In this document: positions 1-46,697 of the stretch, piece by piece | Layout: the number at the start of each line of letters is the position of its first letter | Position numbering within the stretch: the first letter of the stretch is position 1 | Source of the DNA: Posidoniimonas corsicana | Lineage (GTDB): Bacteria > Planctomycetota > Planctomycetia > Pirellulales > Lacipirellulaceae | Length of the DNA stretch: 64,000 nucleotides | Assembly (NCBI RefSeq): GCF_007859765.1 | Contig: NZ_SIHJ01000001.1 | Location: 1,983,311 to 2,047,310 of the forward strand | Direction of reading: 5' to 3' | Notes under the pieces: generated by a model | Told to the model about the DNA's origin: nothing | Database searches by the model: none | The model's input: the letters and a program-made list of their open reading frames with translations, nothing else | Program-made: the position numbers and the translations under genes

Positions 1-7
1 CCGTGTC

Positions 8-3000
8 ATGTACCCGTATTCCGGCTACGACGTGTCTGTCAGCGGCGTCACGATCGCTGACGGATATGTGATTGGCGACGGCGGCGGCATCGTCAATCGG
101 GGGAACCTCACGCTTGACCGCGTGGTTCTCCGTGACAACCGCGCCGAGGAATCGAGTGGCTCGTCTGGCGGCAAAGGAGGCGCCCTCCACAACTACCTGG
201 GCGCCTTAAACGTCATCGACAGCGTAATCGAGGGCAGCAAGGCTCGGCTCGGCGCCGGCTTCTGGCTCGACATGGGCCACTCCAACACTCAGGAAGTCGT
301 GATTACCGGATCCACCTTCGTCAACAACGAGGGCGTCGATCTGCGTGACGGAACAGACTACACCGTTGGCGGCGGTTTGGTCGCCCAAAACTCCAAGAGC
401 AGGGTCCTGGTTTCCAACAGCACTTTTGTCGGAAACACGGCGAGGTACGGTGGCGCCCTCCGCTCGCACAACGGGGCAAACCTTGACATCGTTAACACTA
501 CGGTCACGGGCAACCACGCCACCGATCAGGGCGGCGGGCTCATTGGTGTGGGAAGTTCCCACGTCACCGTGCAGAACAGCATTATTGCCCAAAACACATC
601 GGGCAATGGCCTCCCAGATGTTAGCTTCCAGTCGGGCATCCTCGACCAAGCCAACAGCACCGACAACCTGATTGGCGTCAACTCTGGCAGCCAGTTTAGC
701 AGCTCCACCAACCTGACCGGCGTCGACCCGCTGCTCGGAACCCTCGGCGACCACGGCGGAGCTACCCAGACCGTGCCGCTGCTGCAGGGCAGCCCGGCTA
801 TCGACGCCGGCGACGACACGCTCGCCTCCGCGGTTGGGTTGACCACCGACCAGCGCGGCCACCTGCGTGTCATCGACCTCGGCGATGACGGCACTGCTAG
901 CAGCATCGACATCGGTGCCTTCGAGGTGCAGCCGCCGCCGATTGAGATTGTTGATTTTCGGACGGAGAACGAGCAGCTTGTAGTGGACTACATCGTGCAT
1001 GGGGTCGGGGCGCGGCCGCTTGTATTGCAACTTGCCGCTCTTCATGACGGCAGCCTGACGTCGCTCCAGACAGACATCGAGATCACTAACTCCGCACTTT
1101 GGGCGGGAGGAACAACGCACTCGTTTGCATTCACCCCCAACTTTTCAGCCGCGGGTTTAGACGAGGATTACAGTCTCTCTGTGGGGGTTGCCTACACAGC
1201 CGAGACGCTAACTAATTCTGACGCCAAATTGCTCGTTTCGGGACTGTTTGTGGAACTAGACGGCACAGTCCACTTGCACGGCAGTGACTTAGACGAGCAA
1301 GTAACAGTGACGTCCACCCAGATCAGCAGCCCGGGGTTACTGACCAGCCCCTATTCCTACACGGCGGGCAACGCTGTGGAGATTCGAACAGGCGGGGGCA
1401 ATGACTCGATTGCGTTCGTAGCTCTCGGAACTGCTTCGGTCAGAGGATTTGGCGGCGCCGGCGACGACACGCTCTCGGCGACGCAAAGTTCCCAAGCGTT
1501 ATTAGATGGAAACGATGGGCAGGACAACCTAGCTGCTGAAAGCACCACTGAACCGCTAAGAGGCGGGATGGGGAATGACGTTATTGAGATATCTGGAAGT
1601 GGAACGGTCCAAGGCAGCTACGGGAGCGACACCTACCGTTTTCTTGCTAACGGTGCGCAGGCATTAGGCTCTGTCACTATTGTCGAGCCGATCGTGACAC
1701 TGGATGTTGCCGATGCCGGTCGGTTCGCAGGCGTCGACACGCTGGATTTCTCTCAGCTCCACTACAACGGCACTGGCGTAAATGTCAACCTAGCCAATAC
1801 CGCGAGTTCCCAAAACGTCTTCGATAATTCGAACTACCTGAGTGTATGGCTGAACGGGGGCGGGGTTGAGAGTATCATCGGCACTGATTACACCGACGCA
1901 CTTGTCGGTGATAGCGGGGCAAACCGACTCGACGGTCGGGGTGGAATAAATTTCTTAACCGGCGGTGGAGGCAACGACACCTACTCACTGAGCAATCAGC
2001 ATAGCGGCGCCAATTACTATTTCATCAGCGACGATGGAGGCTTCGACTTTCTGGACTTCAGCGACTGGACGGGAGAGCTCTACGACTTCGCCTCCAATCC
2101 ATCCTTCGCGCAGCTCGACGCTTCTGGCAACCGGTTCATTGACTTGCAGGATGAGTACTCCATCGAGGCAATCGTCGGTCTCGACAACGTCGATGTCCAA
2201 GGCGATGAACCGCATCTTACCGGCTTCGGAGAGCAGCTTCTCGTCAACTCTTTGGGAGACGTATCGACTACTGCGCCGCAGGAAGCTCCTCCAATTGTGG
2301 CGGGAAGCCTCACGCTACGAGAAGCGATCGAGATCGCAAACGCTGATGCGGGTCCCAACACGATCGTCTTCGACAAGTCGGTTCTTGCTGCGAGCAGCGG
2401 CGTCTTGGAGCTTCTCCCGGGCAGCGACGCGCTGGCAGTTTACGACGGCAACACCACGATCACTGGTCCCGGAGAGGATCAACTGAGGATCCTCCGTAAA
2501 CAAGACGGGCGGCATTTTGAGGTAGGTGGCGGCGCCGCCTCAACCGAGATTCTTGGGCTGACGCTGAGCGGCGGCGGCGCAAGCGATGGCGGCTCAATCC
2601 TCGTAGGAGGGCAACTGGCATTGGACGCTGTGCAGTTGGCTGGCAACGAAGCCGAACGTGGCGGAGCCGCCTATATTGCGAGCAGCGGCGAGTTGCAGTA
2701 CATCAACGGCGTTCTTGCCGATAACTACGCATCAATCGATGGAGGCGCCATCTGGAGCGAGGGTGCGCTTGTGCTCGATAGTACTGACGTAGTCGAAAAC
2801 ACTGCGGAGGGCGTTGGCGGTGGAATCTACAGCAAAGGAATGGTTGCCGGTGTGGATTCCGTAATTGCCTACAACGATTCCTACCATGCAGGTGGAATCT
2901 ACCAAGAGAGCGGCTTGATCGACCTGACGGCGTCAGAAGTTATCAGCAACAGGGCTACTGGGACTTACGGCACAAGTGGAGGCATCAACCTCTTCAACGT

Positions 3001-6000
3001 AAACCGGGCCATGCTCAAGGGAACTCGCATTTCTAACAATGAGAGTAACTTTAGCCGCGGTGGCCTCGGATTCGTTGTTAGCCTCGGTTTTAGCAGCGTG
3101 CTCGATATCTCTGACACTGAGATAAGCGGAAACTTTGCGCCACATGTTTCGGGAGGAGTAGGCATTGAAGCCTACGGTCGAGTTGAGGCAGATATCTCAA
3201 ATACAACTGTATCTGGCAACCGTAGCGACGATGGACCAGCGGGCATCCGGTTTAGTGGTTTCGATGGCGACTTGCTGTTGACGAATGTGACGATCGCGTA
3301 CAACGAATCGTCGAGTGCAGCCTCTGTAGGCGGGCTTGCAGTCGGAACAACCGTGGGTGGCGCAACGCTGTACAGTACGATTGTTGTCGAAAATACCTCA
3401 GGAGGAGTTAACAGCAATTTTTCAGGCGGAATGAGTTCCAGCAGCGGTTACAACCTCTTTGGTGCCGACGTGCAAAGCCTGAATTCAACAGACCTGAGCA
3501 CGTCTTTCCCCGGCCTTCTGCCGCTAGACTACTATGGCGGGGCAACGCAGACCCACGCACTCGAACCGAGCAGCGTTGCGATTGACCATGCTGACGATCT
3601 GATCGCTCCGCCTGCTGACCAGCGTGGTGCAGCCCGCCCCGCCAATGGCGACGGGGATGGCGCAGCGACAGCCGATATCGGCGCGTATGAGCGCTACTCT
3701 TCGGGCGTCACTGCTTTTGGCGAATCGTTCATAGCGTATGATCGTCGGAGTGGTCCGCAGGTCATTGATTCCACTGTCACACTGGTCAATGCCGACGAAG
3801 CTCTTGTCTACGCGGCATCGATCGAACTGCTTGACACTTTGGATGGATTTGTGAGCGAGGTGTTAGAAGTAGAGACGCCATCAGGCGTGTCTGCCGCCTA
3901 CACTGGCGGCGTGTTGACGCTCACAGGGGTGGCAACTGCTTCGGAGTATCAGCAGGCACTGCGATCCGTTTCGTATGCCAACTACTCTGCAGCACCAACT
4001 GACGGGTTGCGTCGAGTCCGGTACAGCATCAACGACGGCTTGCAGAGCTACACGTCAAATAGCATACGGATTGGTGTCGGGCTCAGCGGAGCGGTGACGC
4101 TGATTCCGATTGCGGACGCCCATTGGGGCTTCGGCGACACCGCTAGCGGTGACGATCCTGAGTTCACGCTCGATGGCGGAGCCGGCGAAGCCTTCCTGAG
4201 GTTCCACCTTGATCAGCCGCAGCCGGAAACATCGGGGTTAACTGGCAAGATCAGGGTCTGGGTTGAGGTTCCGGGAGGCGGAACGGGCACTGTGAGCCTG
4301 TACCGCGTCGATGATGATAGCTGGGGGGAGAGTGGAATTAATTCTTCCAGCCATCCGACAAAAATCGGTGGGGCGATCCAGACGCTCACCGGGCTGACGA
4401 CGGGATACGTTGAGTTCGACGTGTCCCAGTACTTGATTGACTCCTTGGATGCTGCGGATGACGAGGTTTCGTTTGCGCTCGTCGCCGACAACACAACAGG
4501 ATCGGCCCCAGTCTTGGTGTCAGCTAGAGAATCGAGCCATCCGGACTACCGGCCTCGCCTGATGATGGAGGGGCACTTCTACAACAACCAAGCCCCATCG
4601 ACCAAGAACGCCGACGTCGTTGGCGATTGGTATCAAGGCCTGATCCCTGGAAAGGTCTTCCAACCAACCTCAAAGGAAGGCGTGCTGGCGAACGACTCGG
4701 ATCCTGATGGAAGCGACATTGTGCTCTCGGTCGAGCTAGTGGATGGCCCGCGTTTTGGTTCGCTCTACCTGGCGCCGAATGGGTGGTTCTCCTTCCGGCC
4801 ACCTAAGGGCGTGAGCGGCCCGGTGAGCTTCACCTACCGCGTCTCGGATGGCCTGGAGTGGAGCGAGCCTCAAACCGTCAAGCTTCAGGTCGAGAAGTCT
4901 CAGCTATTCTACTTGCCTGGGATCGCATCACTGAGTGAGTTTGAGGACGCGGAGGTAATCTCCGCCTACGTCGATCTGTTTGTTCACCACTCTCATCCGA
5001 AGGTCTCTGGAGCGGGCGACGATTACCTGGATGAGTACGGGCCACTTGGCTCCCCACGGATTATGGCCGGGATTAACGTCGGGGAACTCTCTGAAGAAAT
5101 GAAGCGTAATCAGGTTGGCCCCCACAACTTCTACTTCTTCCCAGTCATTACAGCGTACCGAAGAGTTGATGTTACCGCCGATGTTAAGCACTACCTGGCG
5201 GATCCAAGTGCTACCCACTCATTTCACGTTGAATCGTGGGGCGTGGAGTACTGGGGCACCGAAGCTGATGACTTTTTGGAGCTTTCGGAGGGCCTAAACA
5301 GCCCGATAAGCTATGGAGGCCTTGTGAGCCAGCCGGTAGCTTTTTACCCGGCTGACGTAAGCTGGGAGCAAAAGCCCGGACGTAGTGAATGGCTTGAAGC
5401 CAACTCGCATGTCCTCTCAAAGGTTGGCGTGGGCGGAAACGTCTTGGTTGTCGAGGCGATTGTGCCTCGTGACCTCACCGACCCGGACGCCAATCACGAT
5501 CCTTGGTTCACCTCCGAGCGTCCCACGACGATCGCCGTCGGCGAAACACTCGAGTACGTCATGACAGCGACGGACCTCGACCCAGACACCCTGACGTTTT
5601 CGCTGCCGACCGACAAGATGGAGTGGCCAGAAGGGTACGACCCCGTGGCGGCCGGCGTACTGCCAGCATTCTCACAAAACTCGTTCGACCCGGGAGACGA
5701 GAAGGCGAAGGTTACCTGGACGGCGCCAGCCGAGCTGGCCGGAGAGGAAGTGGTATTCTACGAGTACGTCTACGACGGCGAGGGCGGTTGGGACTGGCGG
5801 GACATCCGAGTTAAGGTCATTGGGGAGAATGCGCCCCCGATGGTGACGGCCGACCCGGACGAAAACTACAACATCCCGCCGGACGTCACCCTGCCTCCCA
5901 GTGACGCCAACGTCGGCTCCGCGGAGACGCTCGACCTCGAACTCGACCCAGGCGAACAAGTGACCAAGGAGGTCTGGGTGACAACGACGGCATCCGGGGT

Positions 6001-9000
6001 CGAATCGAAGATTGTGTTCGCGCTGGACGCTACGGGGTCGATGACAGAAGGCTTTAACTGGCTGCAAGACAACCTTTCCGTAATCGATGCCGAGCTGGCC
6101 GACGCAGGGGTGGGGGCAAGGAACTACGGTCTGGTCACTTTTGCGGGAACGGTCAACAAGCACACCAATCCCGCCGTCGGTGTGGATTGGTTCAACGCCG
6201 ATGCGTTGAGCACCTACCTCGCCGACGCTGAGAATTCGGCCGGTACTGAAAATATCCCCGAGCACACTCACAGCCTTGGAAGTGAGGAGCTCTACGCTGG
6301 TCCGTATTACTCGGAACCAGGGTACTCGGCGATCGATTGGATCGTGTCCGACCCGGACTCCCTCTATAGCTGGGATCTCAACTCCGAAACGACTTCCTCT
6401 CAGATCATTCTCATCTCTGATGAGGAAGAGACCAGCTTCGCTATTGGGCAAGACGACTTCTTGCAGGCCCGAACTGCGGAGCGGGAGCGTCTGCTGGGAA
6501 TCTTGCAAAACAACCCCGACGACCCCACTGACGACATTCTCCTCACCTCAATCGTCGCGGCGGGCGTGACCGCCGAACCTACACACGAGTCAACACCCGG
6601 ATTCATTACTCTTTTGGGCGAATGGAGTCGAGGTGCGGGCGGGCTTGTAGGACAAGGCGCGGGAGGAACGGACTGGGCGTTTACGGTAGTTGACGCCGAC
6701 GCCGACAACAAACAGTACGGTCCTCAAGCGCTCAACGCCAAAATCAACATCTCGACGGATTTTGGTGAGTCCGGGACGAATGTCTTGCTGGCGTTCGATT
6801 ACGACCCGGCGTCACAGCAGTTCAAGTACCTGTCGCTCAGCGAGCCTACTCCTGGTGAAGCAGAATTTGAGATTGGGGTCGCTACGGTTGATTTGACAGG
6901 TCAGAAGGTGGACCTCACGCCGCGCTACACGAGCCCGCTAAACAGCGGCGTGGCACCCGGGGCCCACGACGTGACAGTCACTTTCCGGCGGGTCAGCGAC
7001 TCCACCTGGGCCGACGGCGCAGCGGGCCCTATCGTCGTATCGATTGATGGAGAGATATTCCTCGATGAATCAACCCTCGATCCGGCCATTCAGCCCTTGT
7101 TTGGCGCCAACGATGTACTGGATGGGTTTGTTGGAATCGGCGTTCTCGGCGCCGAAGTGTTAGTTGAGGAGTTTGCGCTGCTTGGGACCCGCGATGGCCC
7201 CCGCCACAATCCAGTATCGACCAGCCGGTATTTTGATTTCACTCCGGGCGGCGTTTCTTCTCCGGCGCTTGGTTTTGACCCATCGGGAGTAGCGTATTAC
7301 GCCGGGGTGGACGGTCAGGTTGAGGTCGGGCAGAACCCTTCCGTCGAGTGGTCCGTTAGCGGGGAAACGGCCGCCGCTGATTATTCTTCGGACGCCGAAA
7401 CCGACTATGTAAACCTGTCCCTCCAGTCTGGTGGTTCCGTCTGGGACTACAGCATCCTTCGCAGTAACACCTCCGAGGATGACCTGGGCATGTGGGGAGA
7501 GTCGTTCGCGAACGCGTTTGTTCACACCGTCTTAGAGCAAGTGCAGCAGAATACGAATGGCATCTTCATTACCGCGCCTGAATCGGATGGTTCGCTGGTC
7601 GAGTGGTCCTACAAAGAGCTCATTGATAACGGCGTGGCCCCTCCGACATACGTTTTTGACGTTACGCTGCAGGGAGTAAGCGACTCGCGAGTATTCGACC
7701 TCGAATTTCACCGGCACTCCGATACGGGTCCCATCGGCGCGATTCCCGTCGCGATCACAACGCCTTACTTCGTCGACTTTGAGGCGGTCGACCCCGATGG
7801 CCCTGGCCCCTACACATTCTCGTTTGTGCCAGGGGCCAGCGACCATGGAGCAAGGCTAGAGAGTTCAGGGAAAGATGGCTACATCAACGACCGTCTGGTG
7901 TGGGAAAGCAAGCCTGCCGACGGGGTCTACGAGTTCTTTGTAACGGTGAAGGATGGCCTGGGAGTGTCCGCCCAGACGGCGCTCAAGCCATTCCGGTGGA
8001 CAGTTACCGTAGACTCTGCGCCCCAAAACCTCCACCGCCCGGTAGTCCGCTCCATCTCGCCGAATGGCGGTCAAGACCTGCTGCAGCCAATCACTGTGAG
8101 TGAACGTCGCGGGGTCACTTTCCACGTCGATGCGACCGACGCCGACGACGACACGCCCCGCTACTACTTGGCCGACGACGCGCCGGCAGGTATGAAGATC
8201 GATCGGAACAGCGGCGACATCCGCTGGATTCCGACAAGAGCCGCCGCCGAGGCGGGATCGGTCACATTCACCGTCGCCGTCACGGACGGTAATCTGATTG
8301 AGGAAGACGGCGCGTACGTTACTTCGCGCACGGAGCATACCTTTACGCTTTATGTGGAACCGCTCGACTTTGGCAATCGCACGCCGTCGCTGGGAGCCAT
8401 CGAAGACCGTGTGATCCGGGCAGGCGACAGCTTGGTGATGGACACGGACAAGATCAAATGGACGGATCTCGATGGTGACACGCCACGCTTCACGAAGATT
8501 GAAGGCCCGGACGACCTGATTGTTGACGGCGAAAGCGGCGCCGTCTTTTGGGCGACGGACGAGACAGACGCCGGTGAGTTCGGCGAAAGCTACGATGTCA
8601 CGATCGGGATCGACGACGGAAACGAAGGGCACGCCCAGCGGACCTTCAACGTAGTAGTCCGTCCGGCCAATTCTGCTCCGTCACTACTCCTGCCCGAAAC
8701 ATGGGTCCTCTATGGCCCCACGGGAATCGAGCTGCCCTTCGTGGCTTGGGACAAGGACGGAGAGACCATCGACGTCCAGATCATTTCCCGGCCAGACTGG
8801 GTCAACCAAGATCTCAGCTTTTCGGAGGGCGTCTACAAGATACAGTCCGACCTTGGCTCCATCGGAACCGCATCCAGCAACGATGTGATCGTCATCCAGG
8901 CGGCCGATGGGCTCGAAACTGTCACGAAAAGCGTCCGCGTCAACGCGGGCCTCGTCACCGACTCCCCGCCTATCTTCATTGGCAAAGACAGAATTGTACG

Positions 9001-12000: not shown

Positions 12001-15000
12001 ATTGAAGCTGGAGGACTCGTCGACGCTCAACGAAACGGGGACGCTCCCAGTGTATCTGGACGATACAGCCGGCGGGTTGATCAGCACCTCCTTCACGTCG
12101 GGGCTGAACCAGGGATTGCTGCAGTTCACCTTTACCGCGAAGGACAAGGCTGGCGCCACTGGGGCGAATGAGGCCCAGCAGACCTTCACTTACTACGTGG
12201 ATGACCCGACGAACGGTCGAGTCGGTAAGATCACCAGCATTATTGACGAGGCGATCACTGAGCGGACCGAGATATTTGGCATCGCGGACTATGAAGACGC
12301 TAACGGCGTGGGAAGCTACAGCGTCAAGCTGACGTCCCTCGACGATCCGGACGATTTTGTTTGGATCGAGAAAGACAAGGTCGCCAACGTGCCCGCGGTA
12401 TTCACCGAATCGGAGAACCCCGGCGGCTTCCTCGCAGCGATCGACCCAACGCTGATCCGCTCGGGGCACTATCGGCTGTACCTCGAAGTCAAATGCAGCC
12501 AGGATTGCATCCAGGCGATCGACGAGCGTATCATCGAGATCCGCAATGATTCGCGACTGGGCAACCTGGAGCTATCATTCACAGACCTCCAGACCACTCT
12601 CGGAGGTGTGCCGGTATCGCTCGTCCGCAGCTATAGCTCGGCGTTGGCTGGTGAGGACACCTCTGCAATCGCCGGTCATTTCGGTCCCGGGTGGATGCTC
12701 AACATCCTTGAAGCGGGCGTTTCGGTGTCTCACCCGCGTCAGGTCACACAGGCATTGTCCCACCCGCTGGCGGCCGACTCACGGATTCTAGTAGAGCTCC
12801 CGGACGGTTCTATCCAGCGGTTCACTTTCTCACCTACCGCCCTCGCGGGAGGCTCATTCCTGCCGGCTTTCAAGCCCGATTCCGACACGACGGGCTCGCT
12901 GGGACTCGTCGGGCAAGATGAGTTGCGGCTGCGACTATCTCCGAATCGCAACGACGGCGTTTATCAGGAGTCCGTTTCAGGCGGCTTATTCACGCTTGGG
13001 AGCTTCGCCAACTCGCTTACGCTAACGACGCGGAGCGGGGTCCGCTATCTCTACGATGCGACGTTGGGCCAACTCACAGCTATTGTAGACGCTAACGGGC
13101 GGGCCGTCTCGATTGACCGCGCACTCGACTCAAGCGGCCTCCTCTCTCAAGTCGACGTTGTCTCGCTTAAGAATCCAAGCAACTCCGTTGTCGTCCATTT
13201 CAGCGACGACGGAAGCGGCGGGAAACGGATCACAAGCATCGTTGATCCCGACGGTCAATCGATCAGCTACGACTACGGCGAATACAACCAATCCGGGACC
13301 CTGGTCGATGGCTCGTTTGACGGGCTCGGCAAGGTGACCAATCGCGTCGACGACCCCACCGTCTACCGGTACGAAAGTGACCAGTTCGCCCATCACCTGA
13401 CCACGATTGTCAATGCCGATGGCGTGCCAGCCGTGACCGCCGTCTACTACTACAAAGGGGACGACCTCACCTCACCCCCGGAGCAATGGGGACGCCTGCG
13501 GTCCGTCACGGACGCTGGGCAACAGAATGCGGAGGCCGCGTTCACGCTGGAGGTCCGCCCCGGCCTAACGCTCACCACCACCACACAAGACGGGCAGCAG
13601 GTGGAAGAGGTCCGCAACAGCCGCGGCGATCTCAAGCGGCAGATCCTGCGGCTCACGCCCGATTCGGCGACCGACCACAAGTACCTGGTCACCGTTTTCA
13701 AGCATGACAACCAGGGCCGCGTGACGCAGCAGAGCACGCCCATCGTCATCGACACGGCGCTCCCTGAGTGGGACGCCGACGACCGAATCGACTACCTGCT
13801 GCCGTCACCGGAAGACGACCTGTCCGCATGGCAGTCCCTCACCGAGTACGATTCCGAGGGCCGTGTCAAGAGCACAACCGACGCGACGGGCGCGGTGACC
13901 AAGTATGAGTACGACGACGCTGATCGCCCAATCAAGACCACCGGGCCGGACCTCGTCGAGACCCACAACGTTTACGACCCCTACACCGGCAACCTGCGAG
14001 AAACCTACGCCTACGATCCGGAAACCGATAGGCGATTTAACCACTCCCGCTTCGAGTACAGCTACGGCCGGGTGACCGCCACGTACCAGGTCGACGGAGA
14101 CCAAGAAAAGCTCGTCTCGCGAACCAGCTATGGCGATGACGGACAAGTCGAGTGGACCGAAGATGCTAGCGGCGTCCGGCGCTACTTCGGGTACGACAAC
14201 GTCGGCAACCAGACGCACTCTTGGTCGAGCTGGACCAACGGGACCGAAAGCTACGCGGTTGTCTCGGTGACCGATTACGATTCGGAGGGCCGTGTTGTAG
14301 CGACCCACGAGCACGAACTCACGTCGCAGCACACCGACTTCGGTTCGCTGCCAACGCTTACCGTCGCAAACGCCCCGTGGTCAACGTTCACCACCTACGT
14401 GAACGGCCGCGTGGACCATACTACCGACCGCTACGGCGCAGAAACCCACTACCTCTACGATATCCGCGGTCAGGTTGTTGAGACCCGCTCCACGGCGCGG
14501 AATGAGAACGCTGTTGATGGTTGGCTCGTCACCCGCACCCTGTACGACGAGCAGGGCCGCGTCACTTTCGTGACCGATCCGTACTTCATTGCCGACCCCA
14601 CTGGAGTTTATGACGCCACGACCTCCAGCCTTGCCTGGTTCGGCACACGCACCACCTACGACCACCTTGGACGCACCGAGAAGACCGAACGTTGGGAAAA
14701 TGTACCGGTGGTGGTCAGCGACGTTGATGGACACCTAACGACATCGCCCTCGTTCAATTTCGCCTCTGGAACGCCACTCTCAACCAGCTCCACCACCTAC
14801 AACGACCTCGGCCAGGTAGAGCACACAGAGAGCGAATCGAATGCCCGTACCGACTACTACTACGACAACGCGGGCCGGCAGGTCGCCGTGCTCGGGCCGG
14901 AGGCCCTGGTGGACGGTGTCGCGACTCGCCACCTGACAATCAGCGTCTTCGACATTGCCGGCCGGCTCAAGCGGTCCGTCGCCAACGTCGCGGTCACCGG

Positions 15001-18000
15001 CTACGGCGTCAATCTGCACCCCAACTTCGAATTCGAAGGAACGGCGGTCCGTGGCCTTGACGCCTCGCTCGCCGACTCTGCCAACGAACAGGTCACGAAC
15101 TACGAGTACGACGCCGCGGGGCGGCAGACCGCCGTCATCACGCCCGAGGTTGACCACGATCAGGACCCCGCCACCACGCCGTTGCACCTCCGCAGCGAAA
15201 CCACCTACGACAACCTCGGCCGCCGCACCGCCAGCACGACCGGGCTCACCCAGGGCAACCCGCTGGATCCGAGCACCGTTGTTCGCGGCGCGGCCCGCAC
15301 CACAAATTACGAGTACGACGACGCCGGCCGGCTCACTGCGGTGACGCTCCCCACCGTCCTACACCCCACGCTCACCGTAGAACAGGCTCATGGTGAACAC
15401 GCGCGGGGCGATGAATCTGGCAATCCGCTTCCCGTGCCCGTGTTCGGTCGCCCGAGGTACGAATACTCGTACGACGACTACGGCAACCGCAATCAGGTCC
15501 GCGACAACGTCTTCGTGACCGCCGACGGCGTCTTCTACGACCACGACGGCGACGCCGATGACTTCTCCATTGACGCCGACACACAGGTCACCAAGTTCAC
15601 CTTTGACCACCGCGGCGCACAGCTCACCCGCACACTGCCCGAGGGCGTTGAGAACGGCGGGTTCGTCGAAGAGATGCACTACAGCGATGTGGTCCTCGAC
15701 ACATCGTCCGCCACCCCTGCGCCGGTCGTGGCCGGCCAGCTTGAGTTCACGGTCGACTTCGAGGGCCGCGTCACCGCCTACTCGTACGACAACTCGGCGG
15801 CCGGCGGCGGCCGCATGGTTGAGAAGCGGCACTACGAGAGCAGCACTGACTACTCCGGCAACAATGTCAAGGAGACGACTACCTACACCTACGATGAGTT
15901 CGGCCGCGAGCTCACCGTCGCCATCAACCGTTCAGGGGCAACCAGCCTGCCCGATTGGTCGCACACCACGACCAACCAATACGATGACCAGGGCCGACTC
16001 CTCCGCGTGGAGACCGCGCACGATAGCGTCACCACCGCGGTGAACTACGAGTACGATAACCTCGGCCGTCGAGTGCGGACCTACACGGGCGATAAGGCCA
16101 CCGGCGGGATCACCGGCAACCCCAGCTACACACCGGCAGCTAGCGATGACTTGGCGGTCACCGACACCCAGTACGTCTACGACGCGCTTGGCCGGCTAAC
16201 GAGCGTGATCACGCACGAGCGGTTCGATAACCCGCTCGCCACTCCAGAGCAGACCGACTACCAGTACGACCTCGCCGGCAACCTCGCCCGCACCGCCACG
16301 GACGATGTCGTGACCGACTACGCGTACGACGAGCTCAACCGGCTGGTGGACCAGAAGAACTACGTCGACGACGGCGGCACGCCAGGCGAGTTCGACGATG
16401 CCAACGCAGGCTCGCCGGACACGCTGCTGGGCCGCTACCAGTACGGGCTCGACCTAAACGGCAAGCGGACCTCGCTCGACGAGACCGACGCCAACGGCGG
16501 CCACGCCCAGTACGACTGGGTCTTCGACACGCTCGGCCGGCTGGTCGAGGAACGCTTCGACTACGACTCCGACCCGCAGTCTCCTGATCCGAACGACGCG
16601 TACGACTACACCACGAGCTTCACGCACGACCTGGTCGGCAATCGGGTCCAGAAGTCGGTCGACTATCGGAGCAACGGGGCCATTGACGCCGCGTTGGGAG
16701 ATGGATCGGTTGTCTACGACTATGACAAAAACGACCGCCTGCTCAGGGAGCAATCAGGGCATTACGAGTTGGAAGTCTTCGTGGCCGATCAAACTGCGTT
16801 CTACCAGTATGATGGCCCGGCTCCGGGCGTGCTCGATGGCACGGTCCAGACCGCCAAGCGGGTGTACGCCGGCGACAAGACCGATGAACCAAGTCTAAGC
16901 TTGGCAACCAGCACCACTACCTACGAGTACAACCTCCGCGGACGGATTGCGAAGGTGGATCAGGACGGAGTGGTCTACGAATACGAGTACGACGACTCCG
17001 GCTTCCGCGTCGTGCAGTCGGGGCCGAGCGGCAAGGCGATCTACGTCGTCGACGCGAACAACCCGACCGGCTACACGCAGGTGCTGGAGGAGCAAAACGC
17101 GTCGGGCAATGTCACCAAGACCTACACCCTGGGGCACGATGTGCTGGTTCAGGCGGCCGCCGGCGCGGTCTACCGCCTGCTGGCCGACGGCCACGGCAGC
17201 ACCCGCACGCTGCTCAACATCACCGGCGCTGCGCCCGCTGTTTCACAGCTCTACGCGTACACCGCGCACGGCGAGCCGATCGACCTCACCGGCGTTGCGA
17301 ACTACGTCACGGCCGTGGCCAACGCCACGACCTCGCTGCTCTACTCCGGCGAGCAGACCGACCGCACCGGGCAGCAGTACCTGCGGGCGCGGTACTACGA
17401 TCCAAGCGTGGGGCGGTTTAATCGGCTAGACCCGTACGCAGGCAACGCTCAAGACCCTCAAACCCTACACAAGTACCTGTATGCTCATGGCGACCCGGTA
17501 AATCTGCTTGACCCAACTGGTCTAGCAGCAAGCGATTACAACCTTGTCACCGGGACGCTTGCGCACTTGGTCTTTGGATTGATTTTCCCCAAACATGACT
17601 ATGGTGGTGATGTGTACGTTGACACGGCGATCACCCGGCTCGCTCAAGGAGACGTAGTTGGCGCAGCAAGATCTTTGTTTCGCCCCGATGCAGTCGTACA
17701 CGGCGGCCGATTACACGGCTTCTACGAGCTCAAGCCGATTACGCACTCGTCATCTGTCGCACGTGCAGACGCTACGAATGCGCAATTGGCTGCATATGAC
17801 TTGGCGTTTGCGAATAGCAACGTCCGTCGCGGCAATGCACCGCTTTACATTGGAAAAGAGGCCGGGTACGGCGTCGATGGCGGAGCAATCTGGGCTGGTC
17901 GCTGGTATAAGCTCACCTTCTATGCAGCAGGTGCCACGAAGTCTATCGGAGGGGCGCTTTATGACACGCGGGGACTAGTCTACTATTCACTAAAGCAGAT

Positions 18001-18229
18001 ACAGGTCCCAGACCCCACGCTGCTGGTAGTTCCGCAACAAGCGCCAGCGGAATATCGAGAGAATATCCGATTACCCATTCAGTACCACGGATCGTTTGCT
18101 CTTGAGCCCGTTGCCGCAACTGCCACTGCATACACGGCAGGAGTCGTGGGATACTACAAGCTTCGCGCTCGACTTGGAGGTGGAGGATTCAACCTCGGAG
18201 GATTATTCTCTGGCCTTGCTTTTGCTTGA
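8..18229 (+). CDS. Giant RHS/YD-repeat polymorphic toxin, >6073 aa, 5' end truncated by the window edge. N-terminal parallel beta-helix repeats, Ig/cadherin-like DPDGDTLTFS-type domains, a VWA domain (VFALDATGSM), many YD/RHS repeats, and an RHS core ending RYYDPSVGRFNRLDP...DPTGL, followed by a ~236 aa C-terminal toxin domain.
   Basis: Single ORF open to window start with no upstream stop. Repeated YEYDxxGR / YDNLGR motifs across aa ~4200-5800. Canonical RHS-core terminal motif PxxxxDPxGL at nt ~17480-17520. Sequence after that is unrelated. Confidence 0.85.
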   Translation: MYPYSGYDVSVSGVTIADGYVIGDGGGIVNRGNLTLDRVVLRDNRAEESSGSSGGKGGALHNYLGALNVIDSVIEGSKARLGAGFWLDMGHSNTQEVVITGSTFVNNEGVDLRDGTDYTVGGGLVAQNSKSRVLVSNSTFVGNTARYGGALRSHNGANLDIVNTTVTGNHATDQGGGLIGVGSSHVTVQNSIIAQNTSGNGLPDVSFQSGILDQANSTDNLIGVNSGSQFSSSTNLTGVDPLLGTLGDHGGATQTVPLLQGSPAIDAGDDTLASAVGLTTDQRGHLRVIDLGDDGTASSIDIGAFEVQPPPIEIVDFRTENEQLVVDYIVHGVGARPLVLQLAALHDGSLTSLQTDIEITNSALWAGGTTHSFAFTPNFSAAGLDEDYSLSVGVAYTAETLTNSDAKLLVSGLFVELDGTVHLHGSDLDEQVTVTSTQISSPGLLTSPYSYTAGNAVEIRTGGGNDSIAFVALGTASVRGFGGAGDDTLSATQSSQALLDGNDGQDNLAAESTTEPLRGGMGNDVIEISGSGTVQGSYGSDTYRFLANGAQALGSVTIVEPIVTLDVADAGRFAGVDTLDFSQLHYNGTGVNVNLANTASSQNVFDNSNYLSVWLNGGGVESIIGTDYTDALVGDSGANRLDGRGGINFLTGGGGNDTYSLSNQHSGANYYFISDDGGFDFLDFSDWTGELYDFASNPSFAQLDASGNRFIDLQDEYSIEAIVGLDNVDVQGDEPHLTGFGEQLLVNSLGDVSTTAPQEAPPIVAGSLTLREAIEIANADAGPNTIVFDKSVLAASSGVLELLPGSDALAVYDGNTTITGPGEDQLRILRKQDGRHFEVGGGAASTEILGLTLSGGGASDGGSILVGGQLALDAVQLAGNEAERGGAAYIASSGELQYINGVLADNYASIDGGAIWSEGALVLDSTDVVENTAEGVGGGIYSKGMVAGVDSVIAYNDSYHAGGIYQESGLIDLTASEVISNRATGTYGTSGGINLFNVNRAMLKGTRISNNESNFSRGGLGFVVSLGFSSVLDISDTEISGNFAPHVSGGVGIEAYGRVEADISNTTVSGNRSDDGPAGIRFSGFDGDLLLTNVTIAYNESSSAASVGGLAVGTTVGGATLYSTIVVENTSGGVNSNFSGGMSSSSGYNLFGADVQSLNSTDLSTSFPGLLPLDYYGGATQTHALEPSSVAIDHADDLIAPPADQRGAARPANGDGDGAATADIGAYERYSSGVTAFGESFIAYDRRSGPQVIDSTVTLVNADEALVYAASIELLDTLDGFVSEVLEVETPSGVSAAYTGGVLTLTGVATASEYQQALRSVSYANYSAAPTDGLRRVRYSINDGLQSYTSNSIRIGVGLSGAVTLIPIADAHWGFGDTASGDDPEFTLDGGAGEAFLRFHLDQPQPETSGLTGKIRVWVEVPGGGTGTVSLYRVDDDSWGESGINSSSHPTKIGGAIQTLTGLTTGYVEFDVSQYLIDSLDAADDEVSFALVADNTTGSAPVLVSARESSHPDYRPRLMMEGHFYNNQAPSTKNADVVGDWYQGLIPGKVFQPTSKEGVLANDSDPDGSDIVLSVELVDGPRFGSLYLAPNGWFSFRPPKGVSGPVSFTYRVSDGLEWSEPQTVKLQVEKSQLFYLPGIASLSEFEDAEVISAYVDLFVHHSHPKVSGAGDDYLDEYGPLGSPRIMAGINVGELSEEMKRNQVGPHNFYFFPVITAYRRVDVTADVKHYLADPSATHSFHVESWGVEYWGTEADDFLELSEGLNSPISYGGLVSQPVAFYPADVSWEQKPGRSEWLEANSHVLSKVGVGGNVLVVEAIVPRDLTDPDANHDPWFTSERPTTIAVGETLEYVMTATDLDPDTLTFSLPTDKMEWPEGYDPVAAGVLPAFSQNSFDPGDEKAKVTWTAPAELAGEEVVFYEYVYDGEGGWDWRDIRVKVIGENAPPMVTADPDENYNIPPDVTLPPSDANVGSAETLDLELDPGEQVTKEVWVTTTASGVESKIVFALDATGSMTEGFNWLQDNLSVIDAELADAGVGARNYGLVTFAGTVNKHTNPAVGVDWFNADALSTYLADAENSAGTENIPEHTHSLGSEELYAGPYYSEPGYSAIDWIVSDPDSLYSWDLNSETTSSQIILISDEEETSFAIGQDDFLQARTAERERLLGILQNNPDDPTDDILLTSIVAAGVTAEPTHESTPGFITLLGEWSRGAGGLVGQGAGGTDWAFTVVDADADNKQYGPQALNAKINISTDFGESGTNVLLAFDYDPASQQFKYLSLSEPTPGEAEFEIGVATVDLTGQKVDLTPRYTSPLNSGVAPGAHDVTVTFRRVSDSTWADGAAGPIVVSIDGEIFLDESTLDPAIQPLFGANDVLDGFVGIGVLGAEVLVEEFALLGTRDGPRHNPVSTSRYFDFTPGGVSSPALGFDPSGVAYYAGVDGQVEVGQNPSVEWSVSGETAAADYSSDAETDYVNLSLQSGGSVWDYSILRSNTSEDDLGMWGESFANAFVHTVLEQVQQNTNGIFITAPESDGSLVEWSYKELIDNGVAPPTYVFDVTLQGVSDSRVFDLEFHRHSDTGPIGAIPVAITTPYFVDFEAVDPDGPGPYTFSFVPGASDHGARLESSGKDGYINDRLVWESKPADGVYEFFVTVKDGLGVSAQTALKPFRWTVTVDSAPQNLHRPVVRSISPNGGQDLLQPITVSERRGVTFHVDATDADDDTPRYYLADDAPAGMKIDRNSGDIRWIPTRAAAEAGSVTFTVAVTDGNLIEEDGAYVTSRTEHTFTLYVEPLDFGNRTPSLGAIEDRVIRAGDSLVMDTDKIKWTDLDGDTPRFTKIEGPDDLIVDGESGAVFWATDETDAGEFGESYDVTIGIDDGNEGHAQRTFNVVVRPANSAPSLLLPETWVLYGPTGIELPFVAWDKDGETIDVQIISRPDWVNQDLSFSEGVYKIQSDLGSIGTASSNDVIVIQAADGLETVTKSVRVNAGLVTDSPPIFIGKDRIVRPSHRSLEYSFDVLAKSPLQAGDVMLDAEARALGMSLVFSQDSPTYDASLGGYLYSGFKVLWTSEQEGSFDLTLTANDASGDGSHKDVSISVGPAVNLGVPPTLANLSVTGPVAGEMWNWQVEGDDPDGNNNNISFRIVNAPSGTTVKDPGLLDEEGWAGIQNGYVSWSPSAEIDRTVPYRVVIELIDEDGDITRYTLDVIVAPSGNSVGDVFPAKPSTPPDNEGPDVLTDLSGPYYVGQKFDVWLLAEDENSDNFTFALDPTTTSANLGITSEDLSPEGRLLWTPTAAEGSASLGITVTDEFGAARTTVFKFDVHGAPPISPTFTNFTVPDIVSEGMPWTHRITITDDNPAALEVSLSPEMAAAGIELVPPGEANDALNSIANRGENDWYLVWDAPGPVGRQVYIDVAVVDRQAGKQVNYKFKDFSTGLEVPLTVYAQNDPLGANSSRTLTIPALREFRYNLVFPEALASRLSFELTSSLTYSDPFPEEIRIEGSQIVWAPSGHPDWFDYEAVSGQAPASQLFSFDLQATDSEGEYGPFVAAFSLTVVPPDGSAVAPPEIERATPPPAIAPAGSLWAFAPAKVANASQLVDPSWSLDVAPAGVIFNEETGEIKWTPDESQIGEKSKFTLRLEDVIGNADVLTFTVDVTAENRKPIMGGVLPQAWPDGSAMVIPLLLRDPEGRSITAEILEDGGSGAQISGGDTFEWASPAHHVKPYLLTIRVFEDENPHVYSDYDFEVSVSDSFAGNISPTIQGSPEGTPAFIGAAIDTYTFTVIDPDGGSGSYFNVEKVNGQDYLGGAGQAHEHVQIITTPGGTGEFNWTPQEGEEGSNSFQISYFDGSDRVYRTFHLVAEANDAPEIIAPSQLEITEGVELVYDFTATDPEGGPVYYDFGANQPAGMTIDRESGLLRWKAPAHSGTSADTKQVDLILRDKHGRESQYTFDVVVEADTVAPSINFYIEDTSTGKTVQPGGTIDANRSSDYKLWFDIRDNVDPLSDVPWVLKLEDSSTLNETGTLPVYLDDTAGGLISTSFTSGLNQGLLQFTFTAKDKAGATGANEAQQTFTYYVDDPTNGRVGKITSIIDEAITERTEIFGIADYEDANGVGSYSVKLTSLDDPDDFVWIEKDKVANVPAVFTESENPGGFLAAIDPTLIRSGHYRLYLEVKCSQDCIQAIDERIIEIRNDSRLGNLELSFTDLQTTLGGVPVSLVRSYSSALAGEDTSAIAGHFGPGWMLNILEAGVSVSHPRQVTQALSHPLAADSRILVELPDGSIQRFTFSPTALAGGSFLPAFKPDSDTTGSLGLVGQDELRLRLSPNRNDGVYQESVSGGLFTLGSFANSLTLTTRSGVRYLYDATLGQLTAIVDANGRAVSIDRALDSSGLLSQVDVVSLKNPSNSVVVHFSDDGSGGKRITSIVDPDGQSISYDYGEYNQSGTLVDGSFDGLGKVTNRVDDPTVYRYESDQFAHHLTTIVNADGVPAVTAVYYYKGDDLTSPPEQWGRLRSVTDAGQQNAEAAFTLEVRPGLTLTTTTQDGQQVEEVRNSRGDLKRQILRLTPDSATDHKYLVTVFKHDNQGRVTQQSTPIVIDTALPEWDADDRIDYLLPSPEDDLSAWQSLTEYDSEGRVKSTTDATGAVTKYEYDDADRPIKTTGPDLVETHNVYDPYTGNLRETYAYDPETDRRFNHSRFEYSYGRVTATYQVDGDQEKLVSRTSYGDDGQVEWTEDASGVRRYFGYDNVGNQTHSWSSWTNGTESYAVVSVTDYDSEGRVVATHEHELTSQHTDFGSLPTLTVANAPWSTFTTYVNGRVDHTTDRYGAETHYLYDIRGQVVETRSTARNENAVDGWLVTRTLYDEQGRVTFVTDPYFIADPTGVYDATTSSLAWFGTRTTYDHLGRTEKTERWENVPVVVSDVDGHLTTSPSFNFASGTPLSTSSTTYNDLGQVEHTESESNARTDYYYDNAGRQVAVLGPEALVDGVATRHLTISVFDIAGRLKRSVANVAVTGYGVNLHPNFEFEGTAVRGLDASLADSANEQVTNYEYDAAGRQTAVITPEVDHDQDPATTPLHLRSETTYDNLGRRTASTTGLTQGNPLDPSTVVRGAARTTNYEYDDAGRLTAVTLPTVLHPTLTVEQAHGEHARGDESGNPLPVPVFGRPRYEYSYDDYGNRNQVRDNVFVTADGVFYDHDGDADDFSIDADTQVTKFTFDHRGAQLTRTLPEGVENGGFVEEMHYSDVVLDTSSATPAPVVAGQLEFTVDFEGRVTAYSYDNSAAGGGRMVEKRHYESSTDYSGNNVKETTTYTYDEFGRELTVAINRSGATSLPDWSHTTTNQYDDQGRLLRVETAHDSVTTAVNYEYDNLGRRVRTYTGDKATGGITGNPSYTPAASDDLAVTDTQYVYDALGRLTSVITHERFDNPLATPEQTDYQYDLAGNLARTATDDVVTDYAYDELNRLVDQKNYVDDGGTPGEFDDANAGSPDTLLGRYQYGLDLNGKRTSLDETDANGGHAQYDWVFDTLGRLVEERFDYDSDPQSPDPNDAYDYTTSFTHDLVGNRVQKSVDYRSNGAIDAALGDGSVVYDYDKNDRLLREQSGHYELEVFVADQTAFYQYDGPAPGVLDGTVQTAKRVYAGDKTDEPSLSLATSTTTYEYNLRGRIAKVDQDGVVYEYEYDDSGFRVVQSGPSGKAIYVVDANNPTGYTQVLEEQNASGNVTKTYTLGHDVLVQAAAGAVYRLLADGHGSTRTLLNITGAAPAVSQLYAYTAHGEPIDLTGVANYVTAVANATTSLLYSGEQTDRTGQQYLRARYYDPSVGRFNRLDPYAGNAQDPQTLHKYLYAHGDPVNLLDPTGLAASDYNLVTGTLAHLVFGLIFPKHDYGGDVYVDTAITRLAQGDVVGAARSLFRPDAVVHGGRLHGFYELKPITHSSSVARADATNAQLAAYDLAFANSNVRRGNAPLYIGKEAGYGVDGGAIWAGRWYKLTFYAAGATKSIGGALYDTRGLVYYSLKQIQVPDPTLLVVPQQAPAEYRENIRLPIQYHGSFALEPVAATATAYTAGVVGYYKLRARLGGGGFNLGGLFSGLAFA

Positions 18230-18241
18230 TCAACAGTTTCA

Positions 18242-19159
18242 ATGCTTAGACGCTTATCAAAAATCTCGGATAACGAGTCGGTTCCAGTGCTCCTGCAGGG
18301 AGCGTTTCACGCTCATAGCGTGACTGAACATCGCCTGCTAGATCTGGCGAAACAACTTGATGAATTGAGCAAGACTTCTCATCAGCTAACCGAGGCTTTT
18401 GTTGCCCATCAATCCGACAGTGAGGTCAGATTGTTTGTGTCGTGGATTGACGAAGGTTGTGCAGAACAAGTGTTTGATGTGATTGAAAGAGTCTTTCCCG
18501 AGGCAACGGCAGCACACATTGGGGATGATTCGTCTGCGACCAGCCGGACCAATTGCATCACAGCGAGCATGTCCGGCCTTGAGAACTTGGTCGAAGTGAA
18601 CTCGAAGACGATCGGATTTGAGAACGGGCAGTATGAATTTGTTCGTGGTTTTCGCATTGGTCGAGAATGTGTGCGAGTTGGAGAGTTTCGCGCGTTCGTG
18701 GAAGCAACTGGGTACCAAACTACGGCACAGCAGCACGGGGATCAAGAAACATACGAATCAAACAGTGCCATCGATTGCATAGACGAAGAGGAGGTTAACC
18801 GGTCTGTGGTTACGATGGTGAGCAAGGTTGATGCATTAGAGTACTGTAATTGGGCAGGCGTGCGCCTGCCATCAGAAGCGGAGTGGTTAGCTGCTTCTGT
18901 ACTAGACTGGGACCCTCTACCGCCTGGCCAAAGCATTGTCGATGCCCTGAAGAAACTAAGCGAATTCGGCAGGCTAATAAGTTCTGGTCACGCTGAATGG
19001 ACTGCAACATGCTATTCGGTGCCCGGTACTGCGGTTACTAGGTCTGGCCCACGCTACTTCCTTGAGCATGACTGGCGAGATCGCTGTTGGGCCCAGCACT
19101 TTGTCGAAGCTCACTATGACCTCATGCTTTCATTCCGTGTCGTGCATGACAGTTCTTGA
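18242..19159 (+). CDS. FGE-sulfatase (SUMF1/formylglycine-generating-enzyme-like) domain protein. Candidate immunity protein for the upstream RHS toxin.
   Basis: Starts 13 nt after the RHS stop codon. Motifs VRVGEFRAFVEATGY and RLPSEAEWLAA match the FGE-sulfatase fold signature. Confidence 0.45.
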   Translation: MLRRLSKISDNESVPVLLQGAFHAHSVTEHRLLDLAKQLDELSKTSHQLTEAFVAHQSDSEVRLFVSWIDEGCAEQVFDVIERVFPEATAAHIGDDSSATSRTNCITASMSGLENLVEVNSKTIGFENGQYEFVRGFRIGRECVRVGEFRAFVEATGYQTTAQQHGDQETYESNSAIDCIDEEEVNRSVVTMVSKVDALEYCNWAGVRLPSEAEWLAASVLDWDPLPPGQSIVDALKKLSEFGRLISSGHAEWTATCYSVPGTAVTRSGPRYFLEHDWRDRCWAQHFVEAHYDLMLSFRVVHDSS

Positions 19160-19643
19160 TCAGGGATATTCTTGTGGACGGTTGAGATTCATAGTTATGT
19201 GGGGTGGTACTGCACTGACTCGTCTGTACGGGCGTATGTCTGCTTCCCGCAACCTTCTCGCCCACGGGCGGAGACGACATACGAACACGCCCAGCCGCAC
19301 AGCTCACTGGAATGAGTAGCTCGGATCAAATTCGCGGGCCGTCGCCTTGTTGAGAGATGGAACTGTTTTTTTGCTAGCAGGCAATAAGCTCGTTAGCTGT
19401 TCTTTGTGTTTTTCTATTAGTTGGGCTTGCGGGCGATGGTATACGTGATTCGGTGACGTAGCCATAAGCACTACCGTTAGGCTATTGAGCATCGCTACTA
19501 ACAGCGTCTGCTAGCGACTCTCGAAATCACCTTTCTTTCTTGCCTGAAGCAACGCGCGCAGCATAAATTGACAATGCGTATTAGCTGGCTTTGCCGCGCC
19601 TTTACGTCGCGTTACTTTTGAGTTTCAGGAGCCACTTTCTGCA

Positions 19644-33353: not shown

Positions 33354-33369
33354 AGTCTTCTGAGGATTC

Positions 33370-46376: not shown

Positions 46377-46697
46377 TCATTCGCTGCTGTTGGTTTCGCT
46401 TGTTCCGCGTGACAGGGTAGCCTCGGGACCGTACGCCGAGATCCTGTCAAGCGTCTCCCTGTCCATCCCTTCCGCCAGCCGCTCCAGCTTGGCTCGTTCC
46501 TCTTCCGAGAGCCGGATCGGCTCTCCGGTCTCACGCTCGATCTGCTCCTTCAGACGCCGCGTCTCTTCGATGCGTCGAGCGATCTCACGCTCGATCATTC
46601 TTTCCGCCCAACGTCTCAACCAACCGATCATGGCGATTCTCCTCAGGCGGCCATCCAGTGGTAGTGCTTGAGCATCCCGCCAAGCCGCTCGCGACAC
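46377..46697 (-). CDS. Hypothetical small protein overlapping the 3' end of the transposase gene.
   Basis: ORF only. Arg/Glu-rich coiled-coil-like sequence. May not be a genuine gene. Confidence 0.2.
   Translation of the reverse strand: MSRAAWRDAQALPLDGRLRRIAMIGWLRRWAERMIEREIARRIEETRRLKEQIERETGEPIRLSEEERAKLERLAEGMDRETLDRISAYGPEATLSRGTSETNSSE

Follow-up and report, generated by a model that had tools for sequence, protein, structure and literature searches.

A giant RHS gene of Posidoniimonas corsicana carries a predicted PD-(D/E)xK nuclease-like tip and adjoins a probable FGE-fold immunity gene

The stretch of planctomycete DNA considered here, a window of 64,000 nucleotides (nt) from Posidoniimonas corsicana (contig NZ_SIHJ01000001.1, positions 1,983,311 to 2,047,310 of the forward strand; coordinates below are those of the window), carries at its left end a giant RHS polymorphic toxin gene, followed by a small gene for a protein with the fold of formylglycine-generating enzyme (FGE). 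Judged by conserved motifs and a structural model, the C-terminal domain (CT) of the giant protein is a divergent restriction-endonuclease-fold, or PD-(D/E)xK, toxin related to Tox-REase-9 and missed by the current Pfam model, and the two genes very probably constitute a toxin-immunity pair. The locus is best read, with good confidence, as an RHS polymorphic toxin with an exchangeable tip, a divergent nuclease of the PD-(D/E)xK type, and a cytoplasmic, catalytically dead binder of FGE fold that would neutralise it.

The giant open reading frame (ORF) spans 8..18229 on the forward strand and encodes 6073 amino acids (aa), in agreement with the more than 6000 aa given in a preliminary description made from the DNA letters, while the neighbouring ORF (18242..19159, same strand) encodes 305 aa. 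The former is cut by the window edge, a correction to that description. The frame is stop-free across nt 2-7 and open to the left edge, and the ATG at nt 8 is internal to a frame of 7108 aa. Residue 1036 to the end of the corresponding database protein (P0043; TWT36616.1 / WP_146563659.1, Posidoniimonas corsicana; 7108 aa) is the window ORF, so that the gene measures ~21.3 kilobases and its 5' part lies outside the window. The 1035 further N-terminal residues begin with MRRFPSS...RLEALEVRALLTA, and the leader RLEALEVRALLTA is presumably of the kind that many giant surface proteins of planctomycetes carry; this upstream part also contains one more CBM96 module and a dockerin-like repeat. In public records the protein is named 'tRNA(Glu)-specific nuclease WapA precursor' or 'choice-of-anchor Q domain-containing protein', and the WapA label has probably been transferred from partial similarity in the RHS repeats.

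The RHS shell is preceded by ~5200 aa of adhesin-like modules. These include beta-helix regions recognised as choice-of-anchor Q (NCBIfam NF041518, 1.2e-35, two stretches), tandem-95 repeats in the window part of the protein, and Ig/cadherin modules that match Cadherin_5, Big_9 and He_PIG (1.3e-29), with CBM96/DNRLRE alongside. The shell itself, ~1650 aa from a weak DUF6531 match (~aa 4185) to the end of the core, matches RHS_repeat (PF05593) at 2.9e-38. It closes with the RHS core TIGR03696 (1e-16, 61 bits against a cut-off of 32.5), which ends at aa 5839, and the motif DPTGL (aa 5835-5839, nt 17510-17524) stands directly before the variable CT. Beta-helix repeats, Ig/cadherin-like modules, about 1600 aa of YD/RHS repeats and a core motif near 17520 had all been correctly recognised in the preliminary description. 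The VWA domain that it also listed is dropped as a confident assignment, because the best match, to VWA_2, is sub-threshold (E = 0.1, 13.7 bits against a cut-off of 27).

The CT comprises the 234 aa after DPTGL (nt 17525-18226), two fewer than the 236 previously given. The window CT has no match in Pfam even at E <= 10 and none in NCBIfam or the PDB by sequence, nor does a profile of 28 CT sequences match the PDB; a PHROGs scan of the family returned noise from Gly/Ala-rich tails and nothing else. An NCBIfam match to 'classIII_w_PIP' (E = 0.046), which lies in the nuclease core and not in the tail, was dismissed as chance. Relatives were found by broader searches. A word-indexed search of 5.8e9 proteins yielded two of them (P0001 and P0002, ~40% identity to the window CT), and a profile of these three sequences, scored against 1.84e9 cluster representatives, retrieved 37 relatives at E <= 1e-3. 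The word-indexed search with the 28-sequence profile gave at least 6 proteins, a scan of a genome collection gave one locus (Planctomycetales bacterium ZRK34), and a metagenome scan gave two loci, both redundant with known ones. In nearly all relatives that retain their N-terminal part, the match starts right after an RHS-core end of the form DPxG[LMFH]. Since the domain thus recurs behind RHS cores in many proteins, it is a variable C-terminal domain, as had been proposed, and the possibility that it is structural RHS shell is excluded.

Conservation in the 28-sequence alignment, with residues counted from the D of DPTGL, is concentrated in the motifs GxxxH, PD, ELKP and QxxxY. G15, P59, D60, L74, K75, Y96, G108, G155 and Y159 are invariant, H19, F22, P76 and Q92 are conserved in >= 90% of the sequences, and position 73 is E, or D in a few members. 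In an AlphaFold2 model (predicted local distance difference test, pLDDT, 79.5; predicted TM-score, pTM, 0.76; residues 10-190 confident), helix 12-25 carries His19 and helix 83-99 carries QxxxY, Pro-Asp stands where strand 61-64 starts, and Glu-Leu-Lys lies within strand 70-76, giving the order alpha1(His) - beta1 - beta2(PD) - beta3(ELK) - alpha2(QxxxY). The Asp that opens beta2 and the (D/E)xK of beta3 are thus both conserved in the family, and the modelled layout is that of a canonical PD-(D/E)xK domain with its alpha-beta-beta-beta-alpha-beta core. Structural matches of the CT are the DinG nuclease domain (6.3), BpuSI (6.3), MGME1 (5.9), AddA (5.5), Cas4/Cas1 (5.4), Dna2 (5.1), NucS (5.0) and the CdiA-CT DNase toxin of EC869 (3.8). 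Foldseek found nothing significant for the model in the PDB, and the kinship to known nucleases is therefore remote. The set of H, D, ExK and QxxxY motifs is that of RecB/Cas4-type nucleases.

The CT is also related to the toxin family Tox-REase-9. In a Pfam scan of the family, 4 of the 28 members match Tox-REase-9 weakly (best E = 0.0015) and one matches Tox-REase-7. The match in P0074 spans exactly PD-ELKP-QxxxY (profile positions 34-75 of 88); its score of 18.8 bits, and that of 16.3 bits for P0076, are below the Pfam gathering threshold of 27.3, and the window CT has no such match. When the window clade was aligned with the clade of these weak hitters by hhalign, the two were linked over 153 core columns with 99.7% probability (E = 1.7e-26). 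Zhang et al. 2012 (PMC3482391), who place Tox-REase-9 on RHS and other proteins, give its signature as 'GxxxH, E, D, ELKP, YxxE'. The CT family conserves GxxxH, D and ELKP, whereas a conserved Glu between His and Asp is missing, and YxxE is present in tail-less relatives but is Y-D-L-A in the window. The domain, which had been said to resemble no nameable toxin family, can accordingly be assigned as a divergent PD-(D/E)xK domain with a GxxxH / D / ELKP signature. It is likely a nuclease, for which DNA is a more likely substrate than RNA.

The second gene follows closely. Its ATG at 18242 is separated from the toxin stop codon (18227-18229) by 12 nt, and no credible terminator or promoter lies between the two genes. 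RefSeq places the start at an internal GTG (290 aa), but the ATG is the better start, because an N-terminal block aligns with orthologues upstream of the GTG and the GenBank record also has 305 aa. An FGE/SUMF1-like fold, noted at the outset, is borne out in several ways: a partial FGE-sulfatase domain is recognised by Pfam (6.9e-16; aa 131-219, profile positions 32-122 of 255), a profile of the protein and its relatives matches FGEs in the PDB at 2.7e-19, and the structural model resembles human FGE/pFGE, CalU17 and EgtB (Foldseek E ~1e-7, probability 1.0). The model was built with generic FGE-family sequences, and its N-terminal domain is hence poorly modelled. This domain of ~115 aa is conserved in the FGE-fold partners of this toxin clade and specific to them, and its profile has no match in the PDB.

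The features of a working enzyme are absent from this protein. Across 11 aligned sequences C202, which aligns to a Thr of the T. curvata FGE, is the sole conserved Cys; the C-terminal part has no conserved Cys pair, and there is no DinB domain. NCBIfam equivalog cut-offs are far from reached (SenA, 50 against 420; EgtB, 32 against 360), and no sulfatase is found among the neighbouring ORFs scanned. The FGE substrate motif (C/S)x(P/A)xR is absent from six of seven CTs tested, that of the window included, and occurs once, as SLAFR, in the CT of the metagenomic locus L001. Because there is no Cys pair, enzyme models score low, no sulfatase was found among the scanned neighbours and no substrate motif is conserved, an active FGE is very unlikely; a functional enzyme beside a sulfatase operon, the alternative that the preliminary description had itself raised, was rejected. 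The public names of the protein (TWT36617.1 / WP_197531237.1), 'Formylglycine-generating sulfatase enzyme' and 'SUMF1/EgtB/PvdO family nonheme iron enzyme', probably reflect label transfer from partial similarity. No signal peptide or transmembrane segment is present in any FGE-fold partner; these proteins are therefore cytoplasmic, which fits a toxin with a cytoplasmic target.

The pairing is not confined to the window. An FGE-fold gene of 279-309 aa adjoins a CT homologue downstream in eight distinct loci: the window, L001 (JGI 3300031654), L002 (SRR26038644), L003 (the ZRK34 genome), L005/L006/L019, L007, L008 and L010, with L005/L006/L019, one pair seen in three samples, counted as one. 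The spacer is 5-22 nt in seven of the eight; L010 is the exception, with ~330 nt between the called genes and ~150 nt to the start of the stop-to-stop ORF. Two of the loci, L001 and L005/L006, are Rhs arrays in which a main CT and its immunity gene are followed by an orphan CT of the window family and an FGE-fold gene, and the L001 array continues with a glycine-zipper orphan CT and its own immunity gene. In ZRK34 (L003 5073-7495, CP050848.1) an insertion sequence (IS) transposase replaces the 5' half of the CT gene, PD motif included. The FGE-fold gene has stayed intact there, apparently as an orphan immunity gene that was kept, which is how such retained genes usually end up. When pairs of loci are compared, toxin identity and partner identity rise and fall together (Mantel r = 0.92, exact permutation p = 0.004); this signal owes most to the three closest pairs (Spearman 0.42), and thus co-inheritance is shown while co-evolution is not proven. 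With a conserved CT partner at eight loci, orphan cassettes of Rhs arrays among them, the FGE-fold gene, already suspected of being the immunity gene, is very probably just that. That it specifically binds and neutralises its cognate toxin is supported indirectly, by the conserved adjacency and the co-varying divergence.

Further observations were made at the same loci and on related proteins. Ahead of the orphan cassettes, the main Rhs CTs (L001 24-2200, L005 1-3373, L006 3-2988) have the look of further REase-type toxins: that of L001 shows GTEIH…LPD…EIKP, and those of L005/L006 weakly match the first 76 positions of the CT family profile. They are accompanied by small immunity genes of their own (192 and 238 aa) with no Pfam match. 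FGE-fold proteins of 207-210 aa encoded at L011-L014 (P0004, P0005), which are closest to the FGE domain of the window (~36% identity) and lack the N-terminal domain, have no CT gene adjacent on their short contigs, and may be stand-alone orphan immunity genes or have a different function.

About 20 of the 28 CTs, that of the window included, end in a tail of 40-60 aa that is rich in Gly, Ala, Ser and Thr and has many small-xxx-small motifs. Its 19-residue hydropathy maximum is 1.0-2.1 (1.09, weakly hydrophobic, in the window), and it is poorly conserved in sequence and length. A Tox-REase-9-like sister clade has no tail and keeps the same catalytic motifs. The two groups differ in their partners: an FGE-fold protein with the N-domain is found at 8/8 tail-bearing loci and a different partner at 3/3 tail-less loci inspected, where the CTs are followed by non-FGE proteins of 257-265 aa. 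Those proteins (L009 2762-3541, L015 2211-3008, L016 1802-2575) have no Pfam domain; the L009 and L015 members are homologous (27% identity, E = 6e-17) and may represent an undescribed immunity family for the tail-less toxin clade. As hypotheses, the tail may serve in membrane insertion or translocation, provide a second, pore-forming activity, or be a handle for the immunity N-domain. A two-part toxin met by a two-part antidote, in which the tail would insert into or cross the membrane so that the nuclease could enter without a type VI secretion system (T6SS), the N-domain would shield the tail and the FGE domain would block the active site, fits the strict co-occurrence of tail and FGE-fold partner (8/8, 3/3) but is unlikely. 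A C-terminal sorting signal of the PEP-CTERM or GlyGly-CTERM type was rejected as an identity of the tail, as there is no model match and no terminal basic cluster.

The cassette also stands out in its base composition. G+C content falls from 0.628 in the RHS body to 0.548 in the CT, 0.509 in the immunity gene and 0.508 in the 484-nt downstream spacer, against a window mean of 0.598, and such a drop is the usual sign of lateral acquisition. The 484-nt stretch contains no obvious terminator or promoter. A tblastn search for RHS cores and cassettes revealed no further RHS-core fragments, orphan CTs or FGE-fold genes in the window, and no PAAR, VgrG or T6SS context of the giant RHS gene was seen among the ORFs scanned. 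The features of the locus are collected in the table.

Table. Features of the toxin-immunity locus in window coordinates
Feature	Position	Strand	Basis
Giant RHS polymorphic-toxin gene, 5'-truncated	1..18229	+	ORF and 7108-aa database protein
Choice-of-anchor Q, end of right-handed beta-helix region (second copy further on)	725..931	+	NF041518, 1.2e-35
CBM96/DNRLRE module, then cadherin-like / Big_9 Ig domain	4181..4894	+	Domain matches
He_PIG Ig-like domain, best-scoring of the Ig-like array	8087..8296	+	PF05345, 1.3e-29, 3 stretches
RHS/YD shell, from weak DUF6531 (plug-like) match to end of RHS-associated core	12560..17524	+	Domain matches
RHS repeat-associated core, ending in DPTGL, the expected self-cleavage boundary	17312..17524	+	TIGR03696
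CT toxin core, predicted PD-(D/E)xK nuclease-like fold	17525..18079	+	Motifs and model
CT motif: His of GxxxH	17564-17566	+	Alignment
CT motif: Asp of PD	17687-17689	+	Alignment
CT motif: ELK	17726-17734	+	Alignment
CT motif: QxxxY	17783-17797	+	Alignment
Gly/Ala-rich, moderately hydrophobic CT tail, low-confidence model	18089..18226	+	Alignment and model
Immunity protein, N-terminal domain, ~115 aa, no known family	18242..18586	+	Partner alignment
Immunity protein, shortened FGE-fold domain without catalytic Cys pair	18587..19159	+	Profile and model
Low-G+C (0.508) non-coding stretch closing the CT/immunity cassette	19160..19643	.	GC content

Elsewhere in the window, two IS copies in the same orientation (33364-34784 and 48233-49656) are 82% identical and each contain a 388-aa rve-integrase ORF, and a third rve-type transposase and an IS1-like ORF occur at 46643-47722 and 38144-39031. 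These elements flank another giant gene (39152-46294), whose product of 2380 aa has a dockerin-like repeat, and the region may be a composite mobile region. A planctomycete PSCyt1/PSCyt2/PSD1 protein (DUF1549/DUF1553) encoded at 51372-54398 on the reverse strand fits the taxonomy and is unrelated to the toxin.

How such a system might work can be proposed as follows. The 7108-aa protein would be exported and displayed as a long adhesin-like fibre with beta-helix, carbohydrate-binding and Ig/cadherin modules, ending in an RHS cocoon. By analogy with solved Rhs/Tc proteins, the cocoon would enclose the last 234 aa and cleave itself at DPTGL. The released PD-(D/E)xK domain, Tox-REase-9-like and with RecB/Cas4-type motifs, would then cut nucleic acid in the cytoplasm of a neighbouring cell and kill it, while the producer would be protected by the co-transcribed, cytoplasmic and catalytically dead FGE-fold protein, which would act by binding and not enzymatically. 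The cassette of CT and immunity gene would be laterally acquired and exchangeable. Several points weigh against this reading. The window CT finds nothing in Pfam, and its relatives reach only 16-19 bits where the Tox-REase-9 cut-off is 27.3; the Gly/Ala-rich hydrophobic tail of most members is not obviously needed by a soluble nuclease; no T6SS genes or domains were seen among the window ORFs scanned, which bears on the delivery route; and the effector countered by Tsi3, the only FGE-like immunity protein studied by experiment, is of unknown activity, so that the Tsi3 precedent is silent on nucleases.

The tail invites the view that lethality comes from membrane damage by a glycine-zipper-like segment, as in the Rhs toxin Tse5, with the REase-like domain serving as a carrier or an inactive scaffold. 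The length of the tail, its small-xxx-small motifs and its hydropathy agree with this, as do the bona fide glycine-zipper toxin next to the orphan CT in L001 and the restriction of FGE-fold partners to tail-bearing CTs (8/8, against 0/3 for tail-less ones); membrane-depolarising Rhs CTs such as Tse5 (PMC10684867) are, moreover, known. However, strict conservation falls on the nuclease-type residues and not on the tail, which is variable and, in the window, weakly hydrophobic. Toxins that act on membranes are usually countered by immunity proteins located in the membrane or the periplasm, whereas the FGE-fold partners lack both signal peptides and transmembrane segments, and the tail-less sister clade retains the catalytic motifs while still being paired with an immunity-like gene. 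Membrane damage is, on this evidence, an unlikely source of the lethal activity. A tie between FGE-like immunity and pore formers was also looked for in the literature on Tke5/BTH_I2691 and rejected, the Tke5 immunity protein being a membrane protein that is not FGE-like.

If the nuclease reading is kept, the domain may yet be an RNase of the PD-(D/E)xK fold, for instance a tRNase like a Burkholderia CdiA-CT, with all else as proposed. PD-(D/E)xK toxins of both DNase and RNase kinds are known from CdiA-CT structures, the fold assignment leaves the substrate unfixed, and the public WapA name speaks of a tRNA(Glu)-specific nuclease, though this label probably comes from RHS-repeat similarity only. 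Since the closest structural matches are DNA-processing nucleases of the RecB/Cas4 type and the H...D...ExK...QxxxY motif set is the one of that group, RNase activity appears improbable. That the downstream gene encodes a working FGE/EgtB/PvdO-type enzyme, either unrelated to the toxin or acting on it as a maturase or as enzymatic immunity, has the Pfam match and the public names in its favour, and planctomycetes are rich in sulfatases. The match covers just part of the profile, though, and the missing Cys pair and DinB domain, the scores far under the equivalog cut-offs, the lack of a sulfatase among the scanned neighbours and the CTs without a conserved substrate motif all oppose it. Strict adjacency to the CT clade in eight loci, orphan cassettes included, and the dependence of Tsi3 immunity on binding lead in the same direction, making a working enzyme a highly improbable explanation. 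The reading of an RHS-borne nuclease held in check by a dead FGE-fold binder is thus retained as the likely one.

Known systems provide several points of comparison, among them, for the partner, the FGE-like immunity protein Tsi3. In Acinetobacter baumannii Tsi3, which lacks the catalytic cysteines, binds the T6SS effector Tse3 and thereby neutralises it, and thousands of Tsi3 homologues, at a cut-off of E < 1e-50, lie beside vgrG/tse3 genes in Proteobacteria (Lopez et al. 2021, 10.1101/2021.05.21.445229). A 2026 paper cites FGE-like Tsi3 immunity as 'widespread T6E immunity'; the available text of the 2012 catalogue of polymorphic-toxin immunity proteins (PMC3482391) has no mention of FGE, sulfatase or DUF323. 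The FGE fold as an immunity fold is therefore already known, and the earlier remark that it is not a commonly cited immunity family is not supported in that form. The window partner resembles Tsi3 in its fold, in lacking the catalytic cysteines, in being encoded beside an antibacterial toxin and in being expected to act by binding. In contrast, the toxin countered by Tsi3 is the VgrG-linked effector Tse3, whose activity is unknown; in the Proteobacteria that carry this pair, the immunity gene is often read from the other strand and repeated in multi-copy arrays. The planctomycete has one copy, which runs in the same direction as the RHS nuclease-like CT and starts 12 nt behind it, with no T6SS domains in the ORFs scanned; the FGE domain of its product is shortened and is joined to the extra ~115-aa N-terminal domain.

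The toxin itself follows the plan of Rhs/YD toxins (PMC3482391; cocoon as in Tse5, PMC10684867), with YD repeats, DPxGL closing the core, a variable CT directly behind it, an immunity gene that starts within a few nt, a G+C drop over the cassette, and relatives of the pair that occur as orphan cassettes behind other Rhs genes. It differs from them in its exceptional length (7108 aa), its ~5200 aa of adhesin-like modules, the lack of a PAAR/VgrG/T6SS context and its planctomycete host. With Tox-REase-9 (PF15650) the CT family shares GxxxH, D and ELKP, carriage on RHS proteins, sub-threshold matches of members and the 99.7% profile-profile link, but the window CT has no Pfam match, has QxxxY-D instead of YxxE, spans about double the 88 positions of the model, with an extra beta-sheet region and the hydrophobic tail, and is partnered by an FGE-fold protein rather than Imm54; Planctomycetes also lie outside the 2012 phyletic range (PMC3482391). 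RecB, Cas4, AddA, Dna2 and MGME1-type nucleases carry His, Asp, (D/E)xK and QxxxY in the same order on alpha1, beta2, beta3 and alpha2, whereas the CT lacks detectable sequence similarity to them, lacks Fe-S cluster cysteines and is a stand-alone toxin module.

Of the suggestion that the pair might be undescribed, one part stands: in the literature searched, the pairing of this RHS-borne, REase-fold, hydrophobic-tailed toxin, outside T6SS, with an FGE-fold protein that carries an N-domain is new, while FGE-like immunity as such had been published with Tsi3. A REase-fold identity becomes likely for a toxin module that no domain database recognises, in a family of at least 37 sequence clusters on RHS proteins. 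Immunity of the FGE fold, previously reported only for one T6SS effector of unknown activity, is extended beyond T6SS and Proteobacteria to an RHS toxin of assignable fold in Planctomycetes and uncultured bacteria. The public names 'tRNA(Glu)-specific nuclease WapA' and 'formylglycine-generating sulfatase enzyme' are corrected, and genes labelled FGE that lie beside RHS genes should be left out when the sulfatase-maturation capacity of planctomycete genomes is estimated. Moreover, the correlation between tail and N-domain provides a testable handle on how RHS toxins that are independent of T6SS enter cells.

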